Shown here: positions 231-59,371 of the stretch, in pieces
Position numbering within the stretch: position 1 is the first letter of the stretch
Layout of the letters: each line of letters starts with the position of its first letter
Source of the DNA: a virus
Lineage: Duplodnaviria; Caudoviricetes
Strand: one strand, 5' to 3'
Length of the DNA stretch: 62,151 nucleotides
IMG/VR virus record: IMGVR_UViG_3300004369_000015
Span: 1 to 62,151 of that record
Made by a program: the position numbers and the translations under genes
The notes under the pieces: model-generated
Seen by the model: only the letters and a program-made list of their open reading frames with translations
What the model was told of the DNA's origin: nothing
Databases searched by the model: none

Positions 231-259
231 AGGGAGTGTCCTCAAAGACACTCCCTTTT
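231..259. terminator. Hairpin built on the 16-bp palindrome; probable terminator between the convergent arms
   Basis: AGGGAGTGTC-CTCAAA-GACACTCCCT followed by a T-run. Confidence 0.75.
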
Positions 260-265
260 CCTTTA

Positions 266-3200
266 TTATTTTTTCTTCTTCAGAAGTTTGGGGTCGATAG
301 CCATACTCTCTACCTCTCCTTTCTTACTCTCCTTTTCAGGTTCAGGTGACATACCACTTGCGGGTCTATAAGATTTAGATATACCAAGTATGTCGTAGAT
401 TGCTGCCTCTTGAAACTCATCGTCTCCGAATCCAAGGTTGTACAACCCAATGAATGGGTCTAACTGTGCTCCCATTGCAGCCTCAAGTATTGGTCGTGTC
501 GTACCCCACAATACCCCATCTTTCTCTACCTGTTTCTTTACCTTGTATCCTACCGATGAGAATGGGTTCACTATAGAAGAGACAAACTTCTTTTTCTTTT
601 TATACTCATCCCCGCTAATACCCGCTATAACTCTACCGCCAAGGTCGTACTCTTCAGCAACTACACCAAGCATTGGCAACTGATATAGTAGGTTCATACC
701 AATCATTGCTTCAGCAATTTTACCCATAGCATCCTCCCTGTCGTCATCATCTCCTAATAGTTTTCCTATGTTAGAAGTAGCAACGAACAGTGCGTTAGCG
801 ATAGCAAGGTTTAGATAGAACTCTCTGATATCTTTTGAGCGAGGAACCTTTCCTTCTGAAATATCCCTACCCATATTGGTAGCAGATGACATCACTTTGT
901 TTATCTGTAGGAACACTGTGCTTCCAAACATTGTGAATGTTCTAACGAGGTAGTTCTTACTCATCTGAAGAGGAGTCTTCTCTGTTCCACGTCTTGACTG
1001 CTGAGTAGCATTGTAGTTATTGAATGCTTCTGCTGCCTCCTGTGGATTCATTCCGTTCTTGATGTTCCTGTTGTAGTTAATCATATACCCCATAACACCG
1101 AGCACGTCTCCGATAACCGTGGGCGCAGCACCCGCCTGTTGAAGTGCACGTCTTGCACGTGCCACTTTAGTATGGCTCTTACTCAGTGGCTTAAATGCTT
1201 TACCTCCTGATTCCAATCCATACACGTCACCCTCAATACCCTGCCTGATACGCATACGAAGTGTTGGTGACATCTCCATCGCCTTATTGATAGCACCGTC
1301 TTTGCCAATCAAATCCTTAGCCATTGACCCATACGTTGCAGCCATATCAACCATAAACATAACAGGGTCGATTGCTTTCTTCACAACGTTAGGAACTTTA
1401 GAGTCCTTAGGGAAGTAACTATAATCAGCATATGCGTTAACAAATGATGTCGCCTGTTTAGCAATCTGAATGACCTTGAATGCCAAAGCAAAACCCGTGA
1501 ACAGTTGTTGGAACTTAGACATCACCTTATTGTCCTGACCCATAGAAGTCCCGGCATTTGGATTGATATCCATATTGACCGTCTGCATCATAGACTTATG
1601 GATACCCAACTCACTAAGTAGTAGGTTCACTGCAGGGATTTTAAAGAATGCATTAATATCCTTCGTGGCCTCAGCATAAGCAACATACTTATCCATTGAC
1701 TGCAGGTGGTTTTCTAACACACCCGAGAAGTCAAAGTCAGATATACTAATATCCTTTTTGGTATCGGTTCTTTCCTTGAATGCAGGTGATACCTCAGCGT
1801 TAAAGATTCCATTGAAGTCGCCCTCCTTTAGGAGTTCGTTGTTATCCTGTGGGCTGATAGTTGATGTTGGGAAATAGTTCTGTACGTAACCAAGGTTCAC
1901 ATCATTGACGCTTGAGTATACAGAGTTTACTTGTTCGTAGTATTCGTTACTCAAGAACTCTACGACCCCATCAACAAATGATACCACCTCAGGCCCGAGG
2001 TTAGTTTTGATTTCCTCTAAGACCTCATCTGAAACCCCTTGGTTGCGCAACTTGTCACGCTGAAAATCATTCTGACTCAGAGCGTATATACGCATCTGTT
2101 GGTCTTTACTTACCTGAGCGTTAAAGGTTGCACCCGTCTTGGTGTTCTTTAATTTAAGAGACATCAATGGGTTACCATCCGAGTAGATGGTATTCATAAC
2201 CTGCTTATACCCCTTGTCAAACCCTGCAGCCCTTGCGATTGAATCTATAGCCTCAATAGTTCTGAATCTATTTTCGTTATAGATATCATTGGCACGGTTC
2301 AGTCTTCTATATACATTGTCCGTAAACGCAGTCTTGCTTCTTGATACTCTATCTACAAGGTTGGTAAGCGTACCAAGGTGTCTCAACATATTCTTAGACG
2401 TAGCGATAACCTGTGAAGCACTGCTATACTTGAAGTTCTTTAACCACTCCTTTATAGCCTGTGGATACTTCCTGTCTCTGAATAGTTTTCTTATTTCGTT
2501 CTTTCTCTCTGAGACTTGGTCGGTGTTTAACAACTCACCCATTTCATCGAACAACTCAGGATTTGTCTCTGCAATCTGAGCAGTCACCTCATCCTCAACC
2601 ATCTTATTACGAGCAGCACGTGCTGCTCTTCTTGACTTCAGGTTGTTTATGGATTCTCTCCTTGTGTCTTTGATGACACTGAACAATTCGTTGGTCTCTT
2701 CCAAAGACATATTCTGAAGGTCGGCAAACGTATCAAACGCCAACGCCAAGTTCATAAGAGCAGTCTCTTTAGATGTCAACTTCTCCCCTCTTGCTTGTTT
2801 AGCGAATGCCTCATCAACCTCAGGTCTTGCAATCTCTTCTGCGATTTTAGCAAGAGCATCTACATCATCCTTGATAATCGCATTGAGTACCTGCTTAGCA
2901 TTAGAGAAGAACGACTGACCCGCAGCGTCCAATCCTGCAGACCTACGTTTACCTGATTGAGTCATAGCAGGTTTTGCTTTCTTGTTTACGAGTTCAGCAA
3001 TCTTCTTTACGACAGACTTCTTCATCGTTGCTCTCTGCTGCTCGATAACATTCATCACATTCTCCATCTGTGCCTCAAGGTCTTCTACAGTTTTTACTTT
3101 ACTTACCGCAGAAATCAATGCATTGATTTTCCCTTGAGTATACTCATTAGATTTAGGGAGGCTTCTTCTGATGAAGTTCTTTAACTGCAACTGAGCATCT

Positions 3201-6200
3201 GCTAAGTTGTTTTCCGCAACCCTTCTCTGTCTTAGGTTATTCCTAATGGCAGCCATCTCTCTGCTGACACTTGTGTTTGCTCTGATACCCAACTGTCTAT
3301 CAAACGCATTCAGTAGTTCCATTTGAACTTGGTCTGTCTGCTCTTGGAATGTTGGGTGAGCCTTCATAAGTTCAACTGCCTTGGCACGGATATCAGAGAA
3401 TGTCTTGGTTCTTGTTGTTCCCCTTCCACCACGTGGGCCTTCGGTAGAGAACCTATCCAACTTCTCTTTTACGTCCTTATACATTTGAAGCGCAGACTGT
3501 ACTCCACCTGCTACACGTTCAAATTCTTTTGGCATTGTAGTAAGCAGGTCAACCTTAACCTCTAATACAGAATCAATATCAGCCTTCTTGTATCCACGAT
3601 TTTTTAGCACCTGTCTTATAGATGCATCTGAGAATCCCTTACTCCGTGCAGCAGATACCACTGCCCCTACAGTAGGGGATGATGATGTCATAAGTTGTAG
3701 TTGGTTATCAAGGTTTCTAACCTCAGCCCCAACAAACAACTCGTTCTCTGACATAAGGTCTACAACAACGCCATTAAGGAACTCATCAAGTGACAGGTTC
3801 TGAATCTGCTCGGCAGACATATTAGAGATACCTGTTAGTTTCTTTACGAACTCAAACAGTTCGTTCAACCAATTCTTGAAATTCTTTTTCTGTGCTGCAG
3901 TGGCGAATGATTCACCCTTATCTCCAATGGCAGTTGCCAATGCTTCCTCAAGGATGTAGTTACGGATGTCCTCTTCGGTAGCACCCGCCTTCTCCATCTC
4001 TTTAATAACCCTTTTATAGTCTGTACTGTTCTCTACATCGGTAACATAGTCAGTACCCTCCACCAAAGCCAACCCCTTCTTATATGTTTCAGGGGACATC
4101 TCTTTGGCAACGTTCATCCAAATGTGTCCGAACTCGTGAACGGGTGTATTAAAGTTTTCTAACCCGGGGTTGAGGTACAACTTACCATCAACCACTGCAC
4201 CGTAAACCTTTTGGCTTTTAGTAACCAACTGACGAGCATTAAGGTTTTCCATTAAAGCATCGAACTCCTCCTGTGTAGCCACAACGTCAACACTTGGGAA
4301 TGCTTTTGTCAGTCTATTTAAAAACTGTTGATACTGAGTAGGTGTAGGAGGAGTAACTTTCTTGGCTACAGATGCACTACGTTGAGCCGTATACATTTCG
4401 TCAGAACGAATCTCTGCTGAACTCTGTTTTCTCATCCCACCCTTGCCATCTTTCTTTTTAAGCAAACCCGCATACTTAGCATTCATTGTGTTCAGTGCTT
4501 TCTTAGATACGTTCCACATAGGAACTGTATCTTCCATCATAGCGACTGCTCTACCTCTAATGTATACAGGATAGTTCTCGTGTGTTCTAATTCCCTCTGC
4601 TTCCTGTTGGTCTCGAGTCATAATGGCCTTGTCAATATCAGCCTCTGACTTAATCAAGTTGCCGTCAGCGTCTGTGATTTCAAGAACCATAGTCATAGCA
4701 CCCATAGGTAGGTCACGTGTAAACTGCTCTGAAACAGAAGACCTTACCGACTGCTGAGTTATACCATTGTCCTGAAGGGTCATCCCTAACTGAGTAGTAG
4801 CCTTGACGTTTGCAGAAGGAAGAACGGCCTGAGTAATCTTTGCTCGTTGGGCTACGTTCAGTGATTTAAAAATATCAATGAATGATTGTAGGTCTGTTGT
4901 TTGACCAATGGCGTTATGGATAATTTTTGTATCCTTGTCTCCGAACTTTCTACCCAAGATGTAATCCTTCATCTGATTGTATACATCCTGTTGGTTGTCA
5001 AGTTTGTTTAGTTTGTCTGTAAACTCTATTGGTGTGGCAATATTAGAGTCTACTGAAGACGGAGCCATATTGTATACCACACTATAGTCTCCCTTTGTAA
5101 AGCCTCTGATAATTCGCTGCGCAGCCTCAACATCCATAGATGCCCAAGCAACCTTACCAAAGGTATCGTCCATTAGTGGGAAGAATGGGCCACCCATTCT
5201 CTTGCTATCTACCTTCAGTTGGTCAGCCATAACATAGTTAACGACCTTACCAACTAAGTCTTTTACTGACATCTTTGGAACCTTGTTTGCCAACTCAGTA
5301 TTCTCTGTTACTGTGATTGGAATGGTTTCCATAGTAGGCTCTGATACAACCTCAGTCTCCTCCACAATATCGGGCTGAACTTCCTCCATCAACTTACGTG
5401 ATGACTCAGCGAGTTTTTGCTTACGTGCTGATGTTTCAGAGTCTGTATTTAGTTGGAACATCTCAGGGTTTGGTGATTCTCTATTAGCCTCACCGAGCAT
5501 ATTCTCAAGGTCTTGTACCTCGTCATCTAAGAACTGCTGCTCATCGGGTGTCCTTGAAGACACTTCACCCAATCCCTCTATGTCAAGGACTATACCCCCT
5601 TCTTCTTCCGTCCCTTGCTCAGGCGTGACGGTAGTCGTTTCGGTAGTGATTGTGGATTCGGTGTCTCCTTGTCCCACTTCTCGCAGTTCCACCGGCTGCG
5701 GTTGTCTTGTGCTTGTGCGTAACACGCCCGTCTCTGTGCTTGGCTCTTGAATGGCATCTTCTTCTTGTTCTGTTGGTAATGTGCCAACGGGTGCTTGTCT
5801 CTTTGGTGCTTTCTTTAGGCTTTGAATTCCTACTAACTCAATGTTGACACGCTCACCCTCAGGCAATAGTTGTTTTGTTTCCGATATCTTGGCAATCTCT
5901 TCATTGATTGCAGCAATTTTACTTTTGAATACCTCTCTTCTATTCTGAGTAGAGGTCAATTCTTCTCTTGCGTTTAACAGTTCTACTAAGCGAGACTCCA
6001 CATCGGTGTTCTCATTTCTGCTAAGTAGCGATGGACTAACGCCCATAAGGTCTCTCGCCTCACGTCTAAGTCCTACGTTCTTTTGGATGCGTTGGTTTTC
6101 CTCAGGAGTAATCTTCCCAAGTCTTTCCATATTGTTTGCCCAAGAACTAATCTTCTCGTCTGATGCTATCTCGTTTACGATACCATCCGCAGTAGAGAAC

Positions 6201-8596
6201 TCTGCTGCAAGTTTCTCGTAGTTTACGTTTCTAATATCACGCATCATATTAACTGCAGCGTTTGGAGCGTTGTTACCCAATCCACCAATTGCCTCAGCAA
6301 ATATTTCTTTCGCATCAATCTCCTGACCCGCAACTACCTGCGCCATATATTCACCAAATGCTTCAGCAGCAGGGTCAAACACAACACGTTCTCCAACCGT
6401 AGCAGCAGCCTTTGCAGTTTTTGATGCAATGCTTCCTACCTTAAATACTCTACCTGCAAGTCCACCTGACACATAGTCTACGACTGCGATAGGGATACCA
6501 CGCTTCAACCCAATCTCTTTACCCTCGGCCCACACCTGCTCATCCTGCAGGGCAGCAGCCAAACTCAACGGGTCATCGGGGTTGTATCCTTGGTTGTCTA
6601 CCGCATCTAATACTGCGTTGGTGTATTCCAATGCTAAAGACGTGGCAGCAAAACCTGTTCTCATACCATAACTCAATCCTGCTAATGCTCCACCGGGAAC
6701 GGTTACCTCAGCGAAGGGGCCACCCGCTAACCCCGCCACCGCACCTGCTCCTGCTCCCGTAGCAGCCGAACCTGAGATTAACTTATATCCATATGGAAGC
6801 ATTTGGCTAAGCGACTCAGCAACAAAGGCAGTTGACAATTCGAATGGGTCATCAAGGAATACATCAAACGCCTCAGAGAATCCTCTTGCTGATGCGTATC
6901 TATATTGCGCTCTACCCTGCTCGTCTGTACGAGCCTCTTGCATATACTGTATAATCTTTAATGCAACCTCTTGAACCTCGGCATCATCACCAACATCTTT
7001 TAGACCAAGTGCCAATGCTAAGATTTGTTCAGCCCCCTTACCTCTCGCCAATCCTGAAGACCAACTCTGAGAAACTGCATCCCAATTTTCTATGAATTCA
7101 CCACGCAGGTTCTTGTCAAACTTCTCAGTGAAGAATGTATTTGCCATCTCGTAGTTGGATGCAGCGTATTGCTTCATAGCATCCAAGTCCCTTTTGTTTT
7201 GTAAGTAAAGACTAACAAGACTTTTCTGCTCAGTAGTTGTGGGGACGTATTGGCTTAGTTCTTCAAGGGTAATCCCCAACTTCTCATTAACATCTTTTGC
7301 TAAAATTTCTTCTGCTTTTTTGGCTGCTGAGTTAGCCTGTACTGCTTGTGCTGATTTCTGCTGAAACTCCTTGTCCAAAAACAAATCGAAGTCTTCACGT
7401 GCAGTAGCGATATCATCATCCGATATCTTAGAGTATAACTCGTTGTACTCCTCTTCCCTTCTTGCCAATATATCATCGGAGTCATTTCTTCTTCTTCCGT
7501 TGACATACAGGTGGGCGTATTTCTTTTGGTCTTTTTCAGATAGGTCTTTCAGATATAGCATAGACCTGTTGTTCAAGAAGTCTATCTCATCTCTTGTTTC
7601 AGCAAATGCATCTATATCCCTCTTAGCCTGTGCATAGTCTAAGCCACGGTCTTTATAGAATGCGAAACCAACTGCATCGATGTTGTTTATATTCTTCCAA
7701 CTACCCTCTGCAAATGCATTAGCCTTATCGGGGCTATCAAACTCAAATATCTCACCACGTAGAAACGCTTCGTTGTACGCATCCATACCTGACAACTCCA
7801 TCCAATCTTGAGGGTCGCTTGTGTAGTTTGCTCCTTTAGGGAACAGGGTTGGGAATACAACATTCTTCCCGTCAATGATTGCCGATGTTAGTTTAACCGT
7901 TGATACAGAACCGTCAGGGTTCATTACGGGTTTATCTCTTAGCCCTCTCACCTGAAGAGCATACTCTGCCTCGCTTACCTCTTGTGGATTAGCAGTTTTT
8001 AGTGGTGCTTGTTTCTTGCCTCGCTTCTTTTCTTCGGCTTGAACTGCTGCCAATGCAGCAGCATCCTCATTAATATTTTGGCTTGTTGTACGTGCATCAG
8101 CAAAACTTTGACGTAAGGCTTGGTCTACCATCCCCTGCTCGGGATACATACCAAGGCTATTCATAGGGTTTCTATACCCTAACTCACGTGTGTCTTGACC
8201 TATTACCTGTCTGTGGCTGCCATCAGGACTCCACAGTATCTCCCCCGGCTTTGGAGTATAGAACTCAAACTCAGGCTGCTCAGTAGTTGATTGCTCCGAA
8301 GAACCATCTGCCGATGGTAATTCCGTACCATCTTTTTTTTTTACAACAGGCTCTTGCTGAACAGGCTCTTGCTGAACAGGCTCTTGCTGAGTAGCATTAG
8401 CATCACCAAAAAATTCGGGGAACTTTGGATTTATAATACTGTAGTCATAGTTATATTGTTCGGCAGTTGTGACATAGTCTTTCAACAACTGAACGTCATA
8501 TCCTGACAACTCAGGGAACTTGCTCATTACTACTCCCCAATTATAGTTGTGGGCCTGAGCAGTTGCAATTAGGTCTTTTAAAATCTGTTCGTCCAT
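266..8596 (-). CDS. Giant (2776 aa) internal virion/ejection polyvalent protein with zincin metallopeptidase domain
   Basis: HEFGH motif (nt 4124-4138) with downstream EEALA; hydrophobic G/A-rich segments; last gene of the structural operon. Confidence 0.7.
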   Translation of the reverse strand: MDEQILKDLIATAQAHNYNWGVVMSKFPELSGYDVQLLKDYVTTAEQYNYDYSIINPKFPEFFGDANATQQEPVQQEPVQQEPVVKKKDGTELPSADGSSEQSTTEQPEFEFYTPKPGEILWSPDGSHRQVIGQDTRELGYRNPMNSLGMYPEQGMVDQALRQSFADARTTSQNINEDAAALAAVQAEEKKRGKKQAPLKTANPQEVSEAEYALQVRGLRDKPVMNPDGSVSTVKLTSAIIDGKNVVFPTLFPKGANYTSDPQDWMELSGMDAYNEAFLRGEIFEFDSPDKANAFAEGSWKNINNIDAVGFAFYKDRGLDYAQAKRDIDAFAETRDEIDFLNNRSMLYLKDLSEKDQKKYAHLYVNGRRRNDSDDILARREEEYNELYSKISDDDIATAREDFDLFLDKEFQQKSAQAVQANSAAKKAEEILAKDVNEKLGITLEELSQYVPTTTEQKSLVSLYLQNKRDLDAMKQYAASNYEMANTFFTEKFDKNLRGEFIENWDAVSQSWSSGLARGKGAEQILALALGLKDVGDDAEVQEVALKIIQYMQEARTDEQGRAQYRYASARGFSEAFDVFLDDPFELSTAFVAESLSQMLPYGYKLISGSAATGAGAGAVAGLAGGPFAEVTVPGGALAGLSYGMRTGFAATSLALEYTNAVLDAVDNQGYNPDDPLSLAAALQDEQVWAEGKEIGLKRGIPIAVVDYVSGGLAGRVFKVGSIASKTAKAAATVGERVVFDPAAEAFGEYMAQVVAGQEIDAKEIFAEAIGGLGNNAPNAAVNMMRDIRNVNYEKLAAEFSTADGIVNEIASDEKISSWANNMERLGKITPEENQRIQKNVGLRREARDLMGVSPSLLSRNENTDVESRLVELLNAREELTSTQNRREVFKSKIAAINEEIAKISETKQLLPEGERVNIELVGIQSLKKAPKRQAPVGTLPTEQEEDAIQEPSTETGVLRTSTRQPQPVELREVGQGDTESTITTETTTVTPEQGTEEEGGIVLDIEGLGEVSSRTPDEQQFLDDEVQDLENMLGEANRESPNPEMFQLNTDSETSARKQKLAESSRKLMEEVQPDIVEETEVVSEPTMETIPITVTENTELANKVPKMSVKDLVGKVVNYVMADQLKVDSKRMGGPFFPLMDDTFGKVAWASMDVEAAQRIIRGFTKGDYSVVYNMAPSSVDSNIATPIEFTDKLNKLDNQQDVYNQMKDYILGRKFGDKDTKIIHNAIGQTTDLQSFIDIFKSLNVAQRAKITQAVLPSANVKATTQLGMTLQDNGITQQSVRSSVSEQFTRDLPMGAMTMVLEITDADGNLIKSEADIDKAIMTRDQQEAEGIRTHENYPVYIRGRAVAMMEDTVPMWNVSKKALNTMNAKYAGLLKKKDGKGGMRKQSSAEIRSDEMYTAQRSASVAKKVTPPTPTQYQQFLNRLTKAFPSVDVVATQEEFDALMENLNARQLVTKSQKVYGAVVDGKLYLNPGLENFNTPVHEFGHIWMNVAKEMSPETYKKGLALVEGTDYVTDVENSTDYKRVIKEMEKAGATEEDIRNYILEEALATAIGDKGESFATAAQKKNFKNWLNELFEFVKKLTGISNMSAEQIQNLSLDEFLNGVVVDLMSENELFVGAEVRNLDNQLQLMTSSSPTVGAVVSAARSKGFSDASIRQVLKNRGYKKADIDSVLEVKVDLLTTMPKEFERVAGGVQSALQMYKDVKEKLDRFSTEGPRGGRGTTRTKTFSDIRAKAVELMKAHPTFQEQTDQVQMELLNAFDRQLGIRANTSVSREMAAIRNNLRQRRVAENNLADAQLQLKNFIRRSLPKSNEYTQGKINALISAVSKVKTVEDLEAQMENVMNVIEQQRATMKKSVVKKIAELVNKKAKPAMTQSGKRRSAGLDAAGQSFFSNAKQVLNAIIKDDVDALAKIAEEIARPEVDEAFAKQARGEKLTSKETALMNLALAFDTFADLQNMSLEETNELFSVIKDTRRESINNLKSRRAARAARNKMVEDEVTAQIAETNPELFDEMGELLNTDQVSERKNEIRKLFRDRKYPQAIKEWLKNFKYSSASQVIATSKNMLRHLGTLTNLVDRVSRSKTAFTDNVYRRLNRANDIYNENRFRTIEAIDSIARAAGFDKGYKQVMNTIYSDGNPLMSLKLKNTKTGATFNAQVSKDQQMRIYALSQNDFQRDKLRNQGVSDEVLEEIKTNLGPEVVSFVDGVVEFLSNEYYEQVNSVYSSVNDVNLGYVQNYFPTSTISPQDNNELLKEGDFNGIFNAEVSPAFKERTDTKKDISISDFDFSGVLENHLQSMDKYVAYAEATKDINAFFKIPAVNLLLSELGIHKSMMQTVNMDINPNAGTSMGQDNKVMSKFQQLFTGFALAFKVIQIAKQATSFVNAYADYSYFPKDSKVPNVVKKAIDPVMFMVDMAATYGSMAKDLIGKDGAINKAMEMSPTLRMRIRQGIEGDVYGLESGGKAFKPLSKSHTKVARARRALQQAGAAPTVIGDVLGVMGYMINYNRNIKNGMNPQEAAEAFNNYNATQQSRRGTEKTPLQMSKNYLVRTFTMFGSTVFLQINKVMSSATNMGRDISEGKVPRSKDIREFYLNLAIANALFVATSNIGKLLGDDDDREDAMGKIAEAMIGMNLLYQLPMLGVVAEEYDLGGRVIAGISGDEYKKKKKFVSSIVNPFSSVGYKVKKQVEKDGVLWGTTRPILEAAMGAQLDPFIGLYNLGFGDDEFQEAAIYDILGISKSYRPASGMSPEPEKESKKGEVESMAIDPKLLKKKK
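2664..2679. repeat. 16-bp palindrome GTGTC-TTTGAT-GACAC (intragenic)
   Basis: Read directly; one spacer base deviates from consensus. Confidence 0.8.
5548..5563. repeat. 16-bp palindrome GTGTC-CTTGAA-GACAC (intragenic)
   Basis: Read directly. Confidence 0.9.
5590..5757 (-). CDS. Overprinted small basic protein (55 aa, MPFKSQAQRRACYA...WDKETP) in an alternative frame of the giant gene
   Basis: ATG with A-rich leader; resembles the MPFKSxAQRR small phage proteins I recall; lies in an acidic linker of the host frame. Confidence 0.65.
   Translation of the reverse strand: MPFKSQAQRRACYAQAQDNRSRWNCEKWDKETPNPQSLPKRLPSRLSKGRKKKGV
8346..8390. repeat. 3 x 15-bp tandem repeat encoding QQEPV
   Basis: ACAGGCTCTTGCTGA three times. 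Confidence 0.9.
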
Positions 8597-50925: not shown

Positions 50926-50943
50926 TCCTGTGGTCGGGGGGTG

Positions 50944-50959: not shown

Positions 50960-50998
50960 TGCTCCCTTTTTAAAAACAAAAAATTAAATCTAAAAACT

Positions 50999-51313: not shown

Positions 51314-51318
51314 TACAC

Positions 51319-51349
51319 TTGCATATGTCTAAATTATGTATTAAGTTTG
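51319..51349 (+). promoter_or_regulatory. Early promoter TTG-N20-TAAGTTTG
   Basis: Bacteroidota consensus. Confidence 0.7.
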
Positions 51350-51370
51350 TTTATAATTAATTCAAATCCT

Positions 51371-51613: not shown

Positions 51614-51614
51614 A

Positions 51615-52281: not shown

Positions 52282-52289
52282 AATTTATT

Positions 52290-53198: not shown

Positions 53199-53203
53199 AT
53201 CAA

Positions 53204-53860
53204 ATGGCAAATCAAAAATCCGTATTTGAAACGTTGAGCGCAATCAACGTGAACGACAAAGTCGAAAAGAAAAACAACCTTACGTACCTGTCTTGGGCTT
53301 GGGCGTGGGGTGAAGTTAAGAAGAACTATCCTGATGCAACCTACGAGGTAATCAACGACCCTGCGTCAGGCACTCCTTACTTCTTTGACCAAGCACTTGG
53401 CTACTTGGTAATGACATCAGTAACTATCCAAGGTCAGACACTACCAATGTGGTTGCCTGTTATGGATGGTGCGAACAATGCAATGAAGCACGTTCCTTCT
53501 GAGATTGTAACTCGCTATGGCTCTAAGCCTGTGGCTGCTGCTACAATGTTCGATATCAACAAGACGTTGATGCGTTGTCTCACTAAGAACCTTGCGATGT
53601 TTGGTCTTGGTCACTACATCTATGCAGGTGATGACCTACCCGAGGTAGGCGAGGCAGTTCAGGTAACTCCCGCAAAGAAAACTCAACAAGAGGAAGCGTC
53701 ACTCAAGCCACTAAAGGTAGGCGATGAGAATTGGGGGCCGATTGAGAAGTGGGTTATCGAGAACAAAGAGATTGGCATCAAGCGTATCGTTGATACAATC
53801 GAGCGTAAGTACAAGGTGACTACTACGGTTAAGAACAAGATTCAAACTCTAATCAAGTAA
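53204..53860 (+). CDS. Sak3/DUF1071 Rad52-like single-strand annealing protein
   Basis: LTYLSWAWAW, MWLPVMD, INKTLMRCLTKNLAMFGLG. Confidence 0.85.
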   Translation: MANQKSVFETLSAINVNDKVEKKNNLTYLSWAWAWGEVKKNYPDATYEVINDPASGTPYFFDQALGYLVMTSVTIQGQTLPMWLPVMDGANNAMKHVPSEIVTRYGSKPVAAATMFDINKTLMRCLTKNLAMFGLGHYIYAGDDLPEVGEAVQVTPAKKTQQEEASLKPLKVGDENWGPIEKWVIENKEIGIKRIVDTIERKYKVTTTVKNKIQTLIK

Positions 53861-53863
53861 GTT

Positions 53864-54598
53864 ATGGAAGACGTAATCAAAATGCTCCAAGATGATGAGC
53901 ACTACTATGGTACGTTTGGTAATCAGTACCTAAGCAACTCAGACATCTCTGCACTCTTGAACAATCCAAAGATGTTCCGTGTGCCCGAGTCGGGTGACAA
54001 CCTTGCGTATGCAAAGGGACGTTACTTCCACCAACTAATCCTCGAGCCTGAGAAGGCAGAGCAAACTCAGTTCGTTGATGTATCAACTCGCACAACTAAA
54101 GCGTACAAGCAGTACATCGATGACAACGGGATTGACTTCTGCCTGTTGGAGAAAGAGGGAGAAGAGATTCGCCAACTCGTTACGGGTATGCTGAATAACT
54201 TTGACTTCCACGATAACATCAGAGCGACAGGTGTTCAGTACGAAGTACCATCTATCAAAGAGATTGAAGGTGTAATGTGGAAGGGTAAGGCCGACATCAT
54301 TCATCCTGAAATGATTATCGACCTGAAGACAACGGGTAACATCAATGACTTCAAGTGGTCTGCACGTAAGTACAACTACGATAGTCAGTGCTATATCTAC
54401 CAACAACTATTCGGTAAGCCATTAGTATTCTATGTGGTTGACAAGTCGACAGGTATGTTGGGTATGTTTAAACCCACTGAAGAATTTGTTCAGCGTGGAC
54501 ACGAGAAAGTAAAACGTGCCGTTGAGGTATACCATACTTTCTTTGGAGAAGCACCGACTAAAGATGTCAGGTCATACTACATAGATGAATCTCTTTAA
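53864..54598 (+). CDS. RecE/exonuclease VIII-like PD-(D/E)XK exonuclease
   Basis: LSNS, G..FH..ILEP, KGKAD, IDLKTT, Y..Q..IY. Confidence 0.85.
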   Translation: MEDVIKMLQDDEHYYGTFGNQYLSNSDISALLNNPKMFRVPESGDNLAYAKGRYFHQLILEPEKAEQTQFVDVSTRTTKAYKQYIDDNGIDFCLLEKEGEEIRQLVTGMLNNFDFHDNIRATGVQYEVPSIKEIEGVMWKGKADIIHPEMIIDLKTTGNINDFKWSARKYNYDSQCYIYQQLFGKPLVFYVVDKSTGMLGMFKPTEEFVQRGHEKVKRAVEVYHTFFGEAPTKDVRSYYIDESL

Positions 54599-54752
54599 GA
54601 AGTTTAAAAGGTCAGTGTCTTTGAGGACACAAAGTGAAAAGAATCGTGTGATGTGGTTGCCTGTTCCAATGAACTGCAAATCACGAGAGGATAAGATGAA
54701 TATAATCCTAAATACAATGGAAATATTGGAACACAAAATCAAAGTAAAATAA
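54585..54752 (+). CDS. Small hypothetical protein (55 aa)
   Basis: Translated by hand; fills the gap; contains the palindrome at 54615-54630. Confidence 0.55.
   Translation: MNLFKKFKRSVSLRTQSEKNRVMWLPVPMNCKSREDKMNIILNTMEILEHKIKVK
54615..54630. repeat. 16-bp palindrome GTGTC-TTTGAG-GACAC
   Basis: Read directly. Confidence 0.9.
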
Positions 54753-54753
54753 T

Positions 54754-55050
54754 ATGCAACAAGAAAAAATCTTCGCAGACGGCTTCTCTTTCAAGAGAAA
54801 TGAGAAAGCCCCACAGTTCGTAATCGGACGTATGAGTGTTAAGGTAGATGATGCCATCACCTTTTTAAAATCCAACGCAAGTAATGGTTGGGTTAACATC
54901 GATGTGAAACAAGCACAGGGTGGTAACTTCTATTGTGAATTGGATACTTGGAAACCAAATTCAAATGGTGGCCAACAGGCACAAGCACAATCTAAACCTG
55001 CACCTGCACCTGTGGCATCACAGGAAGAAGAAGATGAACTACCATTCTAA
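54754..55050 (+). CDS. Single-stranded DNA-binding protein-like
   Basis: Acidic EEEDELPF tail; next to Sak and the exonuclease. Confidence 0.7.
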   Translation: MQQEKIFADGFSFKRNEKAPQFVIGRMSVKVDDAITFLKSNASNGWVNIDVKQAQGGNFYCELDTWKPNSNGGQQAQAQSKPAPAPVASQEEEDELPF

Positions 55051-55070
55051 GTTCATCCTATTTAAGTACC

Positions 55071-55098
55071 AAGAGGGGGGATTTGTTCCCCCCTTTTT
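55071..55098 (+). terminator. Rho-independent terminator
   Basis: GGGGGA-TTTGT-TCCCCC followed by T6. Confidence 0.8.
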
Positions 55099-55134
55099 TG
55101 GCACTCAACTATGTTTATTGTCAACAAAATGTGT

Positions 55135-55262
55135 GTATATATACTTATTTATATTATATTTATATCCTTTTTCTCTATAATACATATAATAAAATTGACA
55201 TTATCGACACTACTACTGAAAATCAATGAGTTACAAAAATCAAATCAACATTAAATCAACAC
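55135..55262. promoter_or_regulatory. Origin-like element 2: AT-rich tract, GACA/TCAACA repeats, IHF-consensus site at 55221-55233
   Basis: Directly upstream of the primase-helicase; shares GACATTATCGACA with element 1. Confidence 0.5.
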
Positions 55263-55266: not shown

Positions 55267-57684
55267 ATGACATTCGATGTAACAATCTTCAAGAATATCA
55301 AGGAAACAGAGACACCATTCTACCGAGATGTAGATGTAATCCTTGAGAGAATAAAAAACGGAGCGTCAAAGGATACAATCAAGCGCATACGTACAGAGAA
55401 TAATAAAACCGAGCGCAACGAATTGAAGAAGCGGTTACCTGCCATCTGCTTTAGTGGTAGGTTCACAAAACGCACAGACCAATCGTTGATGGAGCATAGC
55501 GGTCTTATCTGTTTGGACTTCGATGGGTATACAAAGAAGAAGGAACTACTATCAGACAAGGACACGCTGACCAAGAACAAGTTTGTTTATTCAGTATTCA
55601 TCTCGCCATCAGGCAATGGCCTGAAGGTATTGGTTAAGATACCTGCTGACGCAGACAACCACGTCAACTACTTCAACTCTCTTGAGAAGCACTTTGATTC
55701 TCCGTACTTCGACAAGATGTGTAAGAACGTATCACGTGTGTGCTATGAATCATACGACCCACTCATCTACGTAAATAAGAACTCATCTGTATGGGATAAG
55801 ATTGATGAGCCTGAGTATGTGGAGGTGGATGCACATCGTGACCCGCCAACTATTCCTATCACAGATGAGAACAAGATTGTAGATATCCTTGTGAAGTGGT
55901 GGGTGAAGAAGTACCCAATGGTTGAGGGCCAACGCAACCACAATGTGTACGTACTTGCGATGGCATTCAATGAGTATGGTGTAAACAAATCCTTGGCAGG
56001 GTATGTGCTAAACCAATACGCCACACAGGACTTCACACTGCGTGAGATTCAAACCACAATAAATTCAGCCTACGCCCAACCACAGAAGTTTGGTACAAAG
56101 TATTACGAGGACGAAGACAAACTGAATCAAATCAAAACCAAACTAAAAAGAGGCGTATCAAAAAAAGAAGTACGTCACCAATTAGAAGAGTCGAACTTGG
56201 ATGGCGATACAATCGAAGCGGTACTTACTCGTATCGAGAAGGAGAACTCGACTCAAACATTTTGGGAGAAGAGCGAGAAGGGAGTAATCAAAATCGTTCA
56301 CATCTTATTCAAGCAGTTCCTTGAGGACAATGGATTCTATAAGTATTGTCCTGAGGGTAGTAAGAACTACGTGTTTGTTAAGGTCACTAACAATCTAATC
56401 GACCACACATCAGAGAAAGAAATCAAGGACTTCATCCTTAACCACCTGATTGAATTGGATGACCTCAGCATCTACAACTACTTTGCTGACAACGTGCGCT
56501 ACTTCCGTGAGGAATTTCTTACGCTACTATCTACCATAGATATCTACTTCATTGAAGATAACAAGGACACATCATACCTGTACTACCGTAACTGTGCAGT
56601 TAAGATATCTAACGATGAGATAGAACCAATCGACTACCTTGACCTTGGCGGTTACGTTTGGAAAGACCACGTCATCGATAGGAAGTTTACCATCTGTGAT
56701 GTGGATGATTGTATGTATCAGAAGTTTATCTCACGCATCTGCGGTGATGATGAGAACCGAGTGATGACTATGGAATCTACGATTGGCTTTATGATGCACG
56801 GATACAAGAACCTATCGTACTGCCCTGCAGTAATCCTAAACGATGAGGTAATCAGCGACAACCCTGAGGGTGGAACAGGTAAGGGATTGTTTATGAACGC
56901 CCTATCTCAGATGAAGAAACTCGTAGTGATTGATGGTAAGGCGTTTGCTTTTGAGAAGTCATTCCCATACCAACTTGTATCAGCAGACACGCAGATACTT
57001 TGCTTTGATGACGTGAAGAAACACTTTGACTTCGAGCGTCTATTCTCTGTAGTAACAGAGGGCCTGACGTTGGAGAAGAAGAACAAGGACGCTATCAAGA
57101 TACCATTCAGCAAGTCACCGAAGATTGCCATCACTACCAACTACGCTATCAAGGGAAGCGGTAACTCTTTCGCAAGACGTAAGTGGGAGATTGAATTGCA
57201 TCAGCACTACAATAAGAACTACACTCCTCTTGATGAATTTGGTAAGCACTTCTTTGCAGATTGGAACGATGAGGATTGGTGTCAGTTCGATAACTATATG
57301 GTGCAGTGTCTTCAAGGATACTTGAATACAGGATTGGTTAAGAGTAAGTTCGTCAACCTGAAGATTCGTCAACTCTCAGCCGAGACATCTCACGACTTCA
57401 TCGAATGGTGTGGTCTAACAGATGGCAACCAACGCAATGACAACTTAGACATTGGGCCTAAACTTATGAAGCAGGACTTGTACTACTCATTCATTGAGGA
57501 GTATCCTGACTACGGGCCAAAGGCTAAGATGACTATCAGTCGCACACGTTTCTATAAGTGGCTTGTATCATACGCACTATATGTAACAGGAGTACAACCC
57601 GAGGAGGGACGTGACCCTGCAGGAAGATGGATGCGTATCCGACATAAGCACGAACTCGAGACACAAAGCCAAATTAATCTATGA
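55267..57684 (+). CDS. Primase-helicase (BT4734/VirE-N-like, PriCT, P-loop helicase)
   Basis: LICLDFD, SPSGNGLK, GQRN, GGTGKG Walker A, CFDD Walker B, ITTN. Confidence 0.85.
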   Translation: MTFDVTIFKNIKETETPFYRDVDVILERIKNGASKDTIKRIRTENNKTERNELKKRLPAICFSGRFTKRTDQSLMEHSGLICLDFDGYTKKKELLSDKDTLTKNKFVYSVFISPSGNGLKVLVKIPADADNHVNYFNSLEKHFDSPYFDKMCKNVSRVCYESYDPLIYVNKNSSVWDKIDEPEYVEVDAHRDPPTIPITDENKIVDILVKWWVKKYPMVEGQRNHNVYVLAMAFNEYGVNKSLAGYVLNQYATQDFTLREIQTTINSAYAQPQKFGTKYYEDEDKLNQIKTKLKRGVSKKEVRHQLEESNLDGDTIEAVLTRIEKENSTQTFWEKSEKGVIKIVHILFKQFLEDNGFYKYCPEGSKNYVFVKVTNNLIDHTSEKEIKDFILNHLIELDDLSIYNYFADNVRYFREEFLTLLSTIDIYFIEDNKDTSYLYYRNCAVKISNDEIEPIDYLDLGGYVWKDHVIDRKFTICDVDDCMYQKFISRICGDDENRVMTMESTIGFMMHGYKNLSYCPAVILNDEVISDNPEGGTGKGLFMNALSQMKKLVVIDGKAFAFEKSFPYQLVSADTQILCFDDVKKHFDFERLFSVVTEGLTLEKKNKDAIKIPFSKSPKIAITTNYAIKGSGNSFARRKWEIELHQHYNKNYTPLDEFGKHFFADWNDEDWCQFDNYMVQCLQGYLNTGLVKSKFVNLKIRQLSAETSHDFIEWCGLTDGNQRNDNLDIGPKLMKQDLYYSFIEEYPDYGPKAKMTISRTRFYKWLVSYALYVTGVQPEEGRDPAGRWMRIRHKHELETQSQINL
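57306..57321. repeat. One-mismatch palindrome GTGTC-TTCAAG-GATAC
   Basis: Read directly. Confidence 0.7.
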
Positions 57685-57926
57685 TGTATAGCGAGAGAGA
57701 AGTGTTAGACATAGCAATGAGAAACTCATACGAGGTGCTTGTCAACGGAATCGATGAGGGTGACTTTGACCTTTCAGAGTTCATCTTCTTTGCACACAAC
57801 CCCGGCAGTCGGTTCAAGAAAAAAGAAATAGAGGGTATGTTAATTTACTTTACTGAAATAGAGGAGTACGAAAAATGTATCAAATTAAAAGAGAAGTTAG
57901 ACCTGAGGGAATATTCCCGAGGTTAG
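57681..57926 (+). CDS. Hypothetical protein with UVR-like EEYEKC motif
   Basis: ORF track. Confidence 0.6.
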   Translation: MMYSEREVLDIAMRNSYEVLVNGIDEGDFDLSEFIFFAHNPGSRFKKKEIEGMLIYFTEIEEYEKCIKLKEKLDLREYSRG

Positions 57927-59371
57927 CAGGACACTCCGATGAGGATATGTACAAGAAGGCCGTACTCCTCCACGGTGTGATGACCAAGAAGAAAGAAGTG
58001 TTCAGTGGTCGTGGCAAGAACAGAAAGAAATCATACGAGAACACGTATGATACAGACAAGGAGTCTATTCAGAAGGCAGAGAGAAGTGTAGAATATTACA
58101 AGTACAGAATGGAAAACAAACAGAGCAAAGTAAAACTAAGAGACTATCAAAAGGAGATAGTCGTGAAAGGTTCTGAGATTATTCTCAAGCACAACTTCGT
58201 TTACCTTGCGATGGAAGTTCGTACAGGTAAGACACTTACGAGTATGAGTATCGCACAACTCTGTAACAAAAAGAATGTACTATTTGTTACCAAGAAGAAG
58301 GCGATGTCAAGCATCAAGGATGACTACGAATTGCTTAACCCCGACTATGACATTACCATAATTAACTATGAGTCATTGCACAAGGTAGAGGATGTCGGGT
58401 CATTCGATATGCTGATACTTGATGAGGCCCACAGTATGGGTGCGTTCCCCAAACCAAGTGAACGAGCCAAGTCCGTGAGCCATATCATTAAGACTTATAG
58501 CCCATCGGTCATCCTGTTATCGGGAACCCCAACTCCTGAGTCGTACTCTCAGATGTACCATCAGGTGTATGGTGTACGTACAAATCCATTCAATCAGTAC
58601 GTAAACTTTTACAAGTTTGCTAAAGACTACGTGAATGTCAAGCAAAGGAAAATCAATTCGCTTTACGTGAACGACTACCACGATGGACATAAGCGTATAC
58701 TTGACGAGATGAAACCATATACCATTGCTTACTCGCAGAAGGAGGCAGGGTTCAAGGTGGAGACACGTGAGCACATACTTACTGTACCACTCGAGCCGTT
58801 GACACTTCAGATAATCAAGCAACTCAAGAGGCACTTGGTTGTCGAGGGTAAGGAGGAGGTAATCTTAGCAGACACTCCTGTTAAACTGATGATGAAACTA
58901 CACCAACTCTGCTCAGGCACAATCAAGTTTGAGTCAGGCAACTCTAAGGTATTGGACTTGAGCAAGGCTAAGTACATCAAGTATAAGTTTAAAGGGAAGA
59001 AGATTGGAATCTTCTACAAGTTTGTTGAGGAACTCAATGCACTGAAGGAGGTATTTGGTAAGGACAATATGACCACTGAACTGAGTGTCTTCAAGGACAC
59101 TGACTGTAAGGTTATAGCCTTACAAATCGTAAGTGGACGTGAGGGTATATCCTTACGAGAAGCGGAGGCGTTGGTGTACTATAACATAGACTTCTCTGCC
59201 ACAAGTTATTGGCAGTCAAGGGATAGGATGACAACCAAGGATAGGTTAGAGTCAGACATCTATTGGATATTCTCTGAAGGTGGTATTGAGCACGAGATTT
59301 ACAAGGCGGTCAGTAAGAAGAAGGACTACACTGTAAACCATTTCAAAAAGGATTTATTAAATTTGTTATAA
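57875..59371 (+). CDS. Superfamily 2 helicase
   Basis: LRDYQ, RTGKT, DEAH, LSGTP, GISL, QSRDR; start codon uncertain. Confidence 0.85.
   Translation: MYQIKREVRPEGIFPRLAGHSDEDMYKKAVLLHGVMTKKKEVFSGRGKNRKKSYENTYDTDKESIQKAERSVEYYKYRMENKQSKVKLRDYQKEIVVKGSEIILKHNFVYLAMEVRTGKTLTSMSIAQLCNKKNVLFVTKKKAMSSIKDDYELLNPDYDITIINYESLHKVEDVGSFDMLILDEAHSMGAFPKPSERAKSVSHIIKTYSPSVILLSGTPTPESYSQMYHQVYGVRTNPFNQYVNFYKFAKDYVNVKQRKINSLYVNDYHDGHKRILDEMKPYTIAYSQKEAGFKVETREHILTVPLEPLTLQIIKQLKRHLVVEGKEEVILADTPVKLMMKLHQLCSGTIKFESGNSKVLDLSKAKYIKYKFKGKKIGIFYKFVEELNALKEVFGKDNMTTELSVFKDTDCKVIALQIVSGREGISLREAEALVYYNIDFSATSYWQSRDRMTTKDRLESDIYWIFSEGGIEHEIYKAVSKKKDYTVNHFKKDLLNLL
59085..59100. repeat. 16-bp palindrome GTGTC-TTCAAG-GACAC (intragenic)
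   Basis: Read directly. Confidence 0.9.

Follow-up and report, generated by a model that had tools for sequence, protein, structure and literature searches.

The window, by which we mean the whole 62,151-nt stretch of DNA that was analyzed, is the complete 62-kb genome of a podophage, an uncultured aquatic phage. A first-pass annotation had listed 18 starts of a dispersed palindrome, GTGTC-YTYRAR-GACAC, and a one-mismatch copy at 57306. All 18 sites carry exact GTGTC-N6-GACAC, compared with a mean of 0.12 copies in 100 dinucleotide-preserving shuffles (maximum, 1; 18 reached in 0 of 100), and the one-mismatch copy is real. The copies and neighboring features are as follows (fold energies in kcal/mol).

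236 to 251: center CTCAAA, at the convergent junction of the plus-strand block and a giant minus-strand gene; on the plus strand, tip of a 12-pair hairpin with a T-run after it (-20.1; z, -5.26)
2664 to 2679: bare, intragenic, within the giant gene 266-8596 (minus strand, 2,776 aa)
5548 to 5563: bare, intragenic, within the same giant gene (minus strand)
12683 to 12698: intergenic, center TTTAAA (fully palindromic), 18 nt 5′ of the start codon (ATG) of gene 11867-12664 (minus strand) (-7.1)
21173 to 21188: intergenic, after the virion structural gene 21209-22657 (minus strand, 482 aa); on the minus strand caps a 12-pair hairpin followed by TTTTTT, terminator-like (-21.5; z, -5.06)
28315 to 28330: bare, intragenic, large terminase gene 26287-28539 (minus strand)
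41195 to 41210: intragenic, DUF5872 gene 41094-41438 (minus strand)
43841 to 43856: intragenic, GroEL gene 42916-44541 (minus strand)
45871 to 45886: center CCCAAG, in the divergent region; the first early gene begins 243 nt downstream
46805 to 46820: intergenic, separating the 219-aa gene from the 313-aa gene, whose ATG (46840) follows after 19 nt; tip of a 9-pair hairpin (GGGA...TCCC) (-17.1; z, -5.62)
47787 to 47802: bare, intergenic, 6 nt past the end of the 313-aa gene (-5.7)
48466 to 48481: intergenic; caps a 10-pair hairpin, with the ATG at 48502 20 nt on (-19.3)
49353 to 49368: bare, intragenic, gene 49221-49742
49750 to 49780, plus strand: promoter-like sequence of Bacteroidota type (TTG...TAnnTTTG) from a pattern scan, with a near-duplicate at 51319
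49815 to 49830: intergenic, between this promoter-like sequence and the ATG at 49852 of the 357-aa gene (-13.7)
50944 to 50959: intergenic, 3′ of the 357-aa gene; caps a 14-pair hairpin (four G-U pairs) followed by TTTTT, terminator-like (-24.3)
52407 to 52422: in ORF 52254-52517, ~45 to 80 nt upstream of the possible starts (52465 or 52501) of a DnaA_C-HTH gene
54615 to 54630: center TTTGAG, directly 3′ of the exonuclease gene 53864-54598
57306 to 57321: one-mismatch copy GTGTCTTCAAGGATAC, with a GATAC arm, in a primase-like gene
59085 to 59100: intragenic, helicase gene 57875-59371; orthologous in 29 distinct helicase genes
59670 to 59912: VRR-NUC/Hjc-like nuclease gene

The sequence at 49750 to 49780 is called host-type promoter-like from what we take to be the Bacteroidota promoter consensus. 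By crude gene calls with ATG starts, 10 copies are intergenic and 8 intragenic. The earlier count of nine in coding sequence was close; the copies at 45871 and 54615 overlap doubtful short ORFs only. Synonymous codons were permuted gene by gene across 63 confident genes, and the 1,000 resulting genomes held a mean of 0.374 intragenic copies (maximum, 3); none reached the eight observed (2664, 5548, 28315, 41195, 43841, 49353, 52407, and 59085). We found no published motif matching GTGTC-N6-GACAC in the literature, and an Rfam search with the motif hairpin returned no family.

Conservation of the motif in related phages

The motif recurs in relatives, which make up a large family of uncultured podophages, with at least two copies in 29 of 80 related loci, often at matching positions. 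Its arms are all-or-none: 2.14 Mb of relatives contained 248 perfect and 13 one-mismatch copies. At the helicase copy, the Val codon is GTC in 29 of 29 distinct genes (12% elsewhere in the same genes) and the Asp codon is GAC in 28 of 29 (42% elsewhere), while motif-less relatives encode a different peptide at this position; the copy arose via substitutions, not insertion, and shows purifying selection across the 29 genes. Both arms have switched together, to GTCTC/GAGAC, at orthologous slots in loci L028 and L069, as at the slot equivalent to copy 49815, and copies with hybrid arms are present in L011 and L018. The all-or-none arms, the frozen synonymous sites of the helicase copy, and the coordinated arm switches support the earlier proposal that selection acts at the nucleic-acid level and is sequence specific rather than directed at a generic hairpin. 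Two arguments offered for that proposal needed adjustment. Across the family, intragenic copies do occur in all three reading frames, but in unequal numbers (77, 62, and 9 of 148). The arms do not covary within the genome, but relatives switch them jointly, and the bases flanking the arms covary in intergenic copies.

Between core blocks of 77% identity, the motif was present as a clean indel at three of four matching places, so we infer that the bare 16-mer is the unit. One of these indels adjoins a separate conserved hairpin. At the place matching copy 54615, the motif distinguishes L023 and L036 from the motif-less L009 and L012 as a clean indel of 15 nt that follows the stop codon. The one-mismatch copy at 57306 occupies the same primase position in L026, L048, and L049 and may be a remnant or merely a conserved peptide.

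Placement at gene borders and associated hairpins

Copies lie mainly at the gene borders of the plus-strand early/replication block. Of 241 copies in all, 115 fall between genes, and coding sequence makes up 92% of the DNA. In MW202828.1, the closest named relative, all 14 copies fall within an 11.4-kb early block and the late region has none. Seven of the 14 are intergenic; six of these lie 14 to 39 nt before an annotated ATG (four within 14 to 18 nt), and the seventh precedes, by 19 nt, an in-frame ATG located upstream of the annotated start. The late genes of the window also hold the motif (2664, 5548, 28315, and 43841). The usual layout is stop codon, motif, ~20 nt, and ATG. Ten relatives (L003, L004, L023, L025, L033, L035, L037, L048, L050, and L072) have a copy 227 to 291 nt upstream of the homologue of the first early gene.

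The lower stem is extended by at least 4 pairs in 50 of 140 intergenic copies versus 7 of 148 intragenic copies. G-U pairs in the extended stems favor the sense strand (66 versus 38; p = 0.008), and T-runs follow 15 of 133 intergenic copies. The center is balanced in orientation within plus-strand genes (47 versus 39), where both orientations occur, and biased in intergenic copies (63 TCAA to 24 TTGA). Stem extension with its sense-strand bias, the T-runs, and the orientation bias of the centers argue for a role at the RNA level. The extended hairpins of the window fold at -13.7 to -24.3 kcal/mol, while bare intragenic copies are weak (-5.7 to -8.6 kcal/mol). Copies 236, 21173, and 50944 look like true terminators. 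Ordinary terminators free of the motif also exist in this phage, for example, at 55075.

A candidate reader and competing explanations

Three early genes form a block that accompanies the motif:

46114 to 46773, plus strand: first early gene, 219 aa, no family recognized; best candidate for a motif-reading factor
46840 to 47781, plus strand: Amidoligase_2-like gene, 313 aa (family is an Atlas lead only)
49852 to 50925, plus strand: 357-aa gene with an N-terminal class-II amidotransferase-like part and a GGACT/AIG2 cyclotransferase domain

The 313-aa protein had no sequence match in Pfam or PDB, and the 357-aa protein carries C-terminal CxxC...CxxC motifs. Amidoligase, GATase, and GGCT genes make up a known podovirus cassette for which cell-wall modification has been proposed (PMC5498523, PMC10580990). 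All 20 motif-bearing genomes have the block, as does 1 of the 18 without the motif (20 with both, 17 with neither, 1 with the block only, and 0 with the motif only), and the same frequencies hold for the 46114-46773 gene itself. On the primase tree, motif and block were concordant in seven of eight independent pairs, with one tied. L106 shares ~90% identity with L112 and L107 up to the region between the divergent gene blocks, beyond which they differ, and only L106 has the motif. These sequence comparisons speak for a motif-reading factor that would travel with the early block; the co-occurrence could also reflect hitch-hiking or shared host adaptation.

The 219-aa protein was modeled by AlphaFold with a pLDDT of 85.8. 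Its homodimer model scored an ipSAE of 0.69 (best of three controls, 0.00), with at least 92% of contacts in common between runs and a partner pLDDT of at least 83; when the tool was calibrated, 20 of 30 proteins solved as homo-pairs came up to this mark, compared with 1 of 23 solved as single chains. Searches of PHROGs, Pfam, PDB sequences, and, with Foldseek, PDB and BFVD gave no family, fold, or DNA-binding domain. Residues 76 to 98 appear helix-turn-helix-like by eye, and this segment differs among the window, MW202828.1, and L072, all of which have GTGTC arms. Four products had been suggested earlier as binders. That of 46114 survives because it co-occurs with the motif and is modeled as a homodimer, which makes it the best candidate for reading the motif. 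The others were rejected: the 42058 protein is near-identical in genomes with and without the motif, the helix-turn-helix segment of 52501 is identical in motif-bearing and motif-less genomes, and 60191 has no motif association.

The best explanation of the 16-mer is a cis-acting recognition site that belongs to the early-gene block of the phage; it resembles an address label for a phage gene-control system that has not been described before and has a candidate reader protein. The account we favor, at somewhat less than an even chance, is that the copies are operator or "stoperator"-like sites for a phage factor, with the 46114-46773 product as the candidate. A phage-encoded symmetric dimer, most plausibly this product, would bind both 5-bp arms on double-stranded DNA, with a flexible YTYRAR spacer setting the bound arms apart by one helical turn, and would thereby control how the early block is transcribed. 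Bound in the divergent promoter region, or on the downstream side of the 49750 promoter, the dimer would be an operator-bound regulator; bound within a cistron or between two, it would be a roadblock, much as stoperators work in mycobacteriophages. In many intergenic copies, the motif would also form the tip of an RNA hairpin (attenuator or terminator), so that one short spacer would serve control at both the DNA and RNA levels. Counting against operators, transcription factor sites are usually more degenerate than a ratio of 248:13.

Stoperators are 13 to 14 bp, asymmetric, and orientation dependent and are read by the monomeric immunity repressor of temperate phages. Like the present motif, they are many near-identical short sites across a phage genome, largely in short intergenic gaps; their sequence changes from one phage to its relatives, as would be expected of sites that co-evolve with a reader encoded by the phage; and their proposed action is a transcription block at many places. 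Unlike them, our motif is a 16-bp palindrome that is about half intragenic, many of its copies cap RNA-type hairpins, and no integrase or recognizable repressor was found among the window proteins scanned. Two reports describe the stoperators of cluster A mycobacteriophages as repressor sites dispersed through the genome (PMC9283540, PMC6550527).

Among the alternatives, a transcribed motif forming an RNA hairpin (5- to 6-bp stem, UYRA loop) is possible, if on balance doubtful. A phage or host protein would read it and set termination/antitermination, processing, stability, or translation for each early cistron, as do lambda N/boxB and Cas6-type hairpin readers. The frequent, strongly folding lower stems of intergenic copies, which vary in sequence and show the sense-strand G-U bias, agree with this, as do the T-runs, the stop-motif-ATG layout, and the other hairpins found in the same slots in L045, L071 (with covarying flanks), and L067. 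An invariant stem with a variable loop in both orientations is, however, the opposite of what most RNA hairpin readers use; the intragenic copies are bare, weak, and orientation balanced, yet strongly selected; the copy recurring in the divergent promoter region is perhaps untranscribed; a bare 16-mer was inserted beside a pre-existing non-motif hairpin; and Rfam has no matching family. Repeated intergenic hairpins or pre-start motifs are familiar as intrinsic terminators and intercistronic hairpins, REP, T4-type PeSL, and the "start-associated sequences" of cluster K. The three terminator-like copies resemble these elements, but the upper stem of the motif is invariant and also occurs bare within genes under selection, ordinary terminators coexist with it (55075), and genomes of the family of G001 hold no excess of copies. 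The first-pass annotation preferred a dimeric protein that organizes, coats, partitions, or packages the genome. The sites of parS/ParB, matS/MatP, SBS/SlmA, and NBS/Noc are likewise dispersed palindromes (13 to 16 bp, read by dimers), and the strict arms, the copies within late genes, and the modeled homodimer would suit such a role. We consider it very unlikely: the 41 window proteins scanned against Pfam include no ParB, MatP, SlmA, or Noc-like domain, no homologue of these readers was found, copies follow the gene borders of one transcription block and are confined to it in MW202828.1, whose late region has no sites, and the RNA-type stem extensions would go unexplained.

It is unlikely that the copies are targets of a phage enzyme that nicks, cuts, or modifies DNA. 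The tf, LUZ24-like, phiKMV-like, and T5-like phages have localized nick sites (single-chain interruptions). Those reported for tf and its LUZ24-like relatives share four traits with the motif: a strict consensus (9 to 14 copies) from which very few sites deviate slightly, comparable positions from phage to phage, a consensus that differs between relatives, and crowding in one genome half; LUZ24-like phages also have amidoligase and glutamine amidotransferase genes (PMC3517423). The window adds the nuclease gene at 59670-59912. Nick sites are, however, described there as asymmetric 9-mers or longer on one strand, whereas an enzyme reading a palindrome would act on both; the motif has no co-varying nickase candidate, and gene-border placement and hairpin extensions are left unexplained. 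Reading by a host factor (a local regulator, nuclease, or RNA-binding protein), with motif and cell-wall cassette as adaptations to the same host, is quite unlikely. In the interval from -10 to +12 kb around the primase gene, no phage genes besides the three of the block track the motif, and the proposed target of the cassette is the host envelope. Against this, and against a host regulator site or REP element, 201 genomes of the family of G001 held 0 to 4 copies each with unrelated centers (reversed control, 0 to 8), a weak test in that this may not be the phages' host family; in two metagenome bins, all copies (10 and 8) lay on one phage-like contig. Most improbable is a palindromic repeat with no dedicated reader, spread and homogenized by recombination and serving as a hotspot for early-gene shuffling (compare T4-type PeSL, integron attC, and REP). 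The early blocks are mosaic, many early genes are bracketed by copies, the motif appears as clean indels, and the phage encodes a Sak annealing protein and an exonuclease. Yet the helicase copy came from substitutions maintained by selection, 16 bp is very short for homology-driven conversion, and the single mosaic junction examined lies ~130 nt from the nearest copy.

The palindrome in the window and in related phages

The window, which is the whole virus record (62,151 bases), has minus-strand genes from 266 to ~45,700 (terminase, portal, virion proteins, tail fibre, amidase, GroES/GroEL, and a giant protein) and plus-strand genes from 46,114 (Sak annealing protein, exonuclease, primase-like 805-aa protein, helicase, and VRR-NUC nuclease, along with two small DnaA_C helix-turn-helix proteins). 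From its gene content and layout, we infer that the plus-strand block is the "early" one. Three features of the window are referred to by position:

266-8596, minus strand, giant protein of 2776 aa without a family match; its neighbors in the Atlas are LPD-domain "polyvalent" proteins of phages
45162-45234, plus strand, tRNA-Arg (anticodon TCT; Rfam match and ARAGORN), past the end of the minus-strand block and before the divergent region
59670-59912, plus strand, VRR-NUC/Hjc-like nuclease of 80 aa (Pfam, 38.6 bits)

Among named records, the uncultured podovirus MW202828.1 is closest, with a large terminase that is 77% identical and a giant-protein counterpart of 3859 aa (~31% identical); Flavobacterium elemo phages and Cellulophaga phages are further relatives. 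The phage family is large: a single IMG/VR scan using the primase-like protein returned 353 relatives, from which 80 loci were kept for analysis. The DNA is listed for metagenomes from freshwater, lagoon, marine, and sediment samples; none of the listed sequencing runs is of RNA.

All 18 copies of GTGTC-N6-GACAC that the first-pass annotation had placed in the window are present, compared with a mean of 0.12 in dinucleotide-preserving shuffles, none of which (0/100) reached 18. The motif is a 16-bp palindrome and so reads identically on either strand. Ten copies are intergenic. The other 8 lie in the 63 confident genes, and their number also exceeds expectation when codons are preserved: in 1,000 genomes with synonymous codons permuted gene by gene, the mean was 0.374 and the maximum 3 (0/1,000 reached 8). 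MW202828.1 carries 14 copies of a single perfect palindrome, GTGTCGTTAACGACAC, all within 43,745-55,154, its plus-strand early block. By our reading of its annotation, 7 of the 14 are intergenic; six of these stand 14 to 39 nt 5′ of an annotated ATG (four of them 14 to 18 nt), and the seventh is 19 nt 5′ of an in-frame ATG that is itself upstream of the annotated start.

The motif was also found in related phages, with at least two copies in 29 of the 80 loci, one in 4, and none in 47; the loci are partial and mutually related, and such counts are of non-independent events, except in the eight-pair test described below. Copies recur at about −9.9, −9, −8, −7, −6, −5, −4.4, −2.9, −1.5, and −0.2/−0.6 kb relative to the primase gene and at +3.6/3.8 kb (in the helicase gene) and +12.1 kb.

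The related loci (2.14 Mb) hold 248 perfect copies with a YTYRAR center versus only 13 with one arm mismatch, and several of those 13 represent one and the same orthologous place. The synonymous-site conservation expected of intragenic copies was seen in the helicase gene, where 29 distinct genes carry the motif at a single codon position, encoding SVF(E/K)DT. Val is GTC in 29/29 (12% elsewhere in these genes), Asp is GAC in 28/29 (42% elsewhere), Glu is GAA in 23/25 (48%), and Phe is TTT in 27/29 (60%). At the same position, motif-less relatives encode E(E/D)F(D/N)TT, and L028, a genome with a GTCTC-type palindrome, encodes SLFEET via GTCTCTTTGAAGAGAC. GTCTC-N6-GAGAC occurs in 5 copies in L028 and 8 in L069, in the same kind of slot; 5′ of the 357-aa gene, for example, the window has the GTGTC type and both of these loci have the GTCTC type. 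In L011 and L018, some copies are hybrids that combine a GTGTC-type arm with a GTCTC-type arm. Comparison of L023/L036, with the motif, and L009/L012, without it (core blocks 77% identical), showed four matching places, at three of which the motif is a clean indel. One of the three directly follows the exonuclease stop codon and adjoins a separate hairpin kept in all four loci; at the remaining place, in the helicase gene, the loci differ by substitutions. On these sequence comparisons, selection is acting on the nucleic acid of the motif. A letter-perfect 16-base signal that is kept inside coding genes at amino-acid cost and that switches specificity genome-wide would mark a tight reader-and-site pair.

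Placement and hairpin structure

Across 82 sequences, where crude gene calls (ATG starts, minimum of 40 aa) make 92% of the DNA coding, 115 of 241 copies (48%) are intergenic; with such calls, some "intragenic" copies in short open reading frames may be intergenic. This placement, together with the confinement of all 14 copies of MW202828.1 to the early block, speaks against distribution by replicon domain in the manner of ParB/parS, as had been suggested. In the sense direction, intergenic centers are biased (TCAA, 63; TTGA, 24; other, 28), and intragenic centers are balanced (47 versus 39 in plus-strand genes).

Many intergenic copies form the tip of a longer hairpin. At least four further Watson-Crick or G-U pairs extend 50 of 140 distinct intergenic copies in the sense strand and 17 in the antisense strand, compared with 7 of 148 intragenic copies. 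The sequence of these lower stems varies from copy to copy. Among 59 extended hairpins there are 66 G-U pairs versus 38 A-C pairs, the latter being G-U on the opposite strand (P = 0.008). G/C-rich lower stems (e.g., GGGA...TCCC) occur at five intergenic copies of the window (236, 21173, 46805, 48466, and 50944), and copy 49815 has lower pairing via a two-base bulge. Folding energies of the six extended copies range from −13.7 to −24.3 kcal/mol; bare copies, consisting of the 16-mer alone, range from −5.7 to −8.6 kcal/mol. A stable, G+C-rich hairpin with a T-run directly behind it, as in an intrinsic terminator, was found at copies 236 (plus strand), 21173 (minus strand), and 50944 and at none of the other window copies. 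Family-wide, runs of at least four T's follow 15 of 133 intergenic copies, ~13 of which have a TAnnTTTG box 30 to 70 nt upstream. These stem extensions, their G-U bias toward the sense strand, and the T-runs together indicate that a subset of intergenic copies are transcribed hairpin tips, some of them probably real terminators. Ordinary motif-free terminators are also present in the phage, e.g., at 55075. An Rfam search at the gathering score gave the tRNA as its single match and no family for the motif.

Promoter-like sequences were noted at two places in the early block:

49750-49780 and 51319-51349, plus strand, Bacteroidota-type promoter-like sequences, near-duplicates of each other (TTGCrTATGTCTAA.TTATGT.TTA..TTTG)

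The first, which we take to resemble a host promoter on the basis of the Bacteroidota-type consensus, is followed by copy 49815 and then by the ATG at 49852; the second has no motif copy after it. An enzyme of the VRR-NUC/Hjc-like kind could cleave cruciforms formed by the palindromes.

Genes that track the motif

In the interval from −10 to +12 kb relative to the primase gene, three gene families and no others track the motif, namely, those of the 219-aa (46114-46773), 313-aa (46840-47781), and 357-aa (49852-50925) genes. With whole records inspected for apparent exceptions, all three genes are present in 20/20 motif-bearing genomes and in 1/18 motif-less genomes. The single motif-less genome with the block, L063, carries three GTCGT-N2-ACGAC palindromes. 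Motif-bearing and motif-less lineages are interleaved in the primase tree, and in 8 independent pairs differing in motif state, the block differs in the same way in 7 and is tied in 1. The same pattern holds for copies in the shared core, from −2.9 to +3.8 kb, and therefore simple physical linkage is no explanation. Comparison of L106 (GTCTC type) with L112/L107 (no shared early palindrome), which are ~90% identical in DNA as far as the early block, shows the motif type changing exactly at the start of that block, which argues that the determinant of the motif travels with it.

The model of the 219-aa protein has a pLDDT of 85.8, and a symmetric homodimer via a long helix is predicted, with a score of 0.69, the best of 3 controls scoring 0.00; in calibration, the mark for this score was reached by 20/30 solved homo-pairs and 1/23 solved single chains. 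Contact agreement between dimer runs was at least 92%, with partner pLDDT values of at least 83. The Atlas places the 313-aa protein beside Amidoligase_2 clusters, which we treat as a lead only. The 357-aa protein combines an N terminus like that of class-II amidotransferases with a GGACT domain (4e-23) and has cysteine pairs at its C terminus. No DNA-binding fold was recognized in any of the three proteins, fold searches of PDB and BFVD gave no informative match for the 219-aa protein, and profiles of the 219-aa and 313-aa proteins matched nothing among PDB sequences. The 219-aa gene is in no cultured phage of the "phages" collection.

Four binders had been put forward in the first-pass annotation, and only the product of 46114, the 219-aa protein, is retained, as it tracks the motif and has a dimer model. 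The product of 42058-42510, whose counterpart in MW202828.1 is annotated "repressor," differs, by our reading, at one residue between L106 and L112/L107. The DnaA_C helix-turn-helix protein at 52501 has an identical helix sequence in motif-bearing L023/L036 and motif-less L007-L010, and 60191 is not associated with the motif. Another candidate reader, the HNH gene of MW202828.1, was set aside as exclusive to that record:

MW202828.1 (locus L001), 39730-40182, free-standing HNH endonuclease gene beside the "repressor"-annotated gene; absent from the window and 62 related loci

The motif does not behave as a host REP element or regulon, since 201 genomes of the family of G001, a metagenome bin whose family may not be the host's, hold 0 to 4 copies each, no more than the reversed control. 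Exact 16-mers in bacterial genomes were scattered single matches, save on two phage-like contigs in metagenome bins titled Flavobacteriaceae (G001:C22) and Cytophagales (G002:C198), where one contig per bin has all the copies (10 and 8, respectively). In each case, a phage contig was probably binned together with a possible host.

Possible functions and comparable repeats

We tentatively favor, at a little below even confidence, the reading that the copies are operator or roadblock sites for a candidate phage-encoded dimer, with many doubling as hairpin tips. A dimer on duplex DNA fits best because the arms are strict and a helical turn apart, with a loose, self-complementary spacer; because the selected intragenic copies are orientation-free and the specificity switch is symmetric; and because a copy recurs 5′ of the first early gene. 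For many of the intergenic copies, RNA structure is important too, as seen from the lower stems, sense-strand G-U bias, and T-runs, and these traits combined with those of a duplex-bound dimer lead us to prefer operator or roadblock sites that include hairpin-tip copies. The same RNA traits support the main rival, in which the motif is a protein-bound RNA hairpin; the orientation-free intragenic copies fit duplex DNA better, and we regard this rival as rather unlikely. A third possibility, that the copies may be target sites of a nick-type enzyme, is worth a direct test. According to PMC3517423, nick sites of phage tf and LUZ24-like phages have an all-or-none consensus, conserved positions, and a co-evolving consensus, and LUZ24-like phages carry amidoligase/amidotransferase genes. 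The motif and the phages that carry it share all of these features. The nick sites of T5, phiKMV, and LUZ24/tf have their consensus on one strand only, and the window palindrome has it on both.

It is also conceivable, as a very long shot, that the palindromes are addresses in an undescribed phage system, to which the dimeric 219-aa candidate brings the amidoligase and amidotransferase/GGACT enzymes, which would covalently modify phage DNA or bound proteins (host RNA polymerase or nucleoid proteins). Many podoviruses have the amidoligase/amidotransferase cassette, for which an effect on the cell wall has been proposed (PMC5498523 and PMC10580990), so that its association with the motif may be an indirect one. 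Were the address reading true, this phage family would use the podovirus "cell-wall cassette" in a nucleic-acid-directed role, and the nick sites of LUZ24-like phages, which encode these enzymes too, might be related to it. Through its unexpected co-occurrence with the motif, this long-unexplained cassette gains a testable partner.

Hairpin promoters for a virion RNA polymerase (N4 or crAss type) were considered and rejected, as the giant protein lacks a DFDxD motif or RNA polymerase similarity; it had no Pfam, PHROG, or PDB match. According to a preprint on phi14:2, the early transcripts of that phage are without a common upstream motif.

The first-pass annotation had likened the motif to the sites of nucleoprotein-organizing systems. 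A palindromic site of ~16 bp is indeed a likeness to ParB/parS-type systems, but Pfam scans of 41 window proteins revealed no ParB-, MatP-, SlmA-, or Noc-like protein. Stoperators of cluster A mycobacteriophages are, like the window motif, many near-identical dispersed sites, mostly at gene borders. A stoperator is asymmetric, 13 to 14 bp long, and oriented with transcription, whereas the window site is palindromic and its center orientation merely biased (63:24 among intergenic copies). To our knowledge, stoperator-type control is known only from mycobacteriophages so far. If the sites are stoperator-like, in a lytic phage of Bacteroidota-type hosts, this mode of control would extend beyond mycobacteriophages, and engineering would gain an orthogonal protein-site pair of compact size. 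A reader-and-site pair of this kind can be sought and tested by simple binding assays. A literature search found no paper with the motif, a phrase search for similar phage palindromes found nothing relevant among the entries listed, and no described system with its combination of traits was found. The motif is best filed under dispersed phage cis-regulatory sites with a co-evolving candidate reader.

Other relatives carry different repeats in comparable slots. L071 (856-17910) has 20 copies of CGTTTAAACG, some inside genes, the intergenic ones with covarying complementary flanks; L045 has 5 copies of GGGGAGC-GCAAT-GCTCCCC; and L091 has 4 AGTGT-N8-ACACT palindromes, 2 of them exact copies of AGTGTGCATATGCACACT. 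Each of ten early genes in L067 (784-4848; also L064) is preceded by a different covarying hairpin and then a conserved GTCAGTTACAAAC...ATG, a layout that matches the window's except that the conserved part lies outside the hairpin. CAAGA-N7-TCTTG and AGTAGT...ACTACT were rejected as comparable dispersed motifs, being tandem repeats (~75 nt) within a late gene (L112:326-2156, L104, and L107). A repeat search of one cultured Flavobacterium phage genome, elemoE_10-3D, found no repeated palindrome in its early region (18.1 kb).

Two further repeat stretches were noted. At 45750-45870, in the divergent region immediately left of copy 45871, short C-rich direct repeats (CACTGCCACT..., CCCCGTCCTGCC twice, and CCCCCTGCCCC...) might serve as an origin, in packaging, or in promoter control. 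The early region of L045 includes, at 6059-6539, a pentapeptide-repeat-like gene built of 15-nt tandem units (GCTGATTTAA...).
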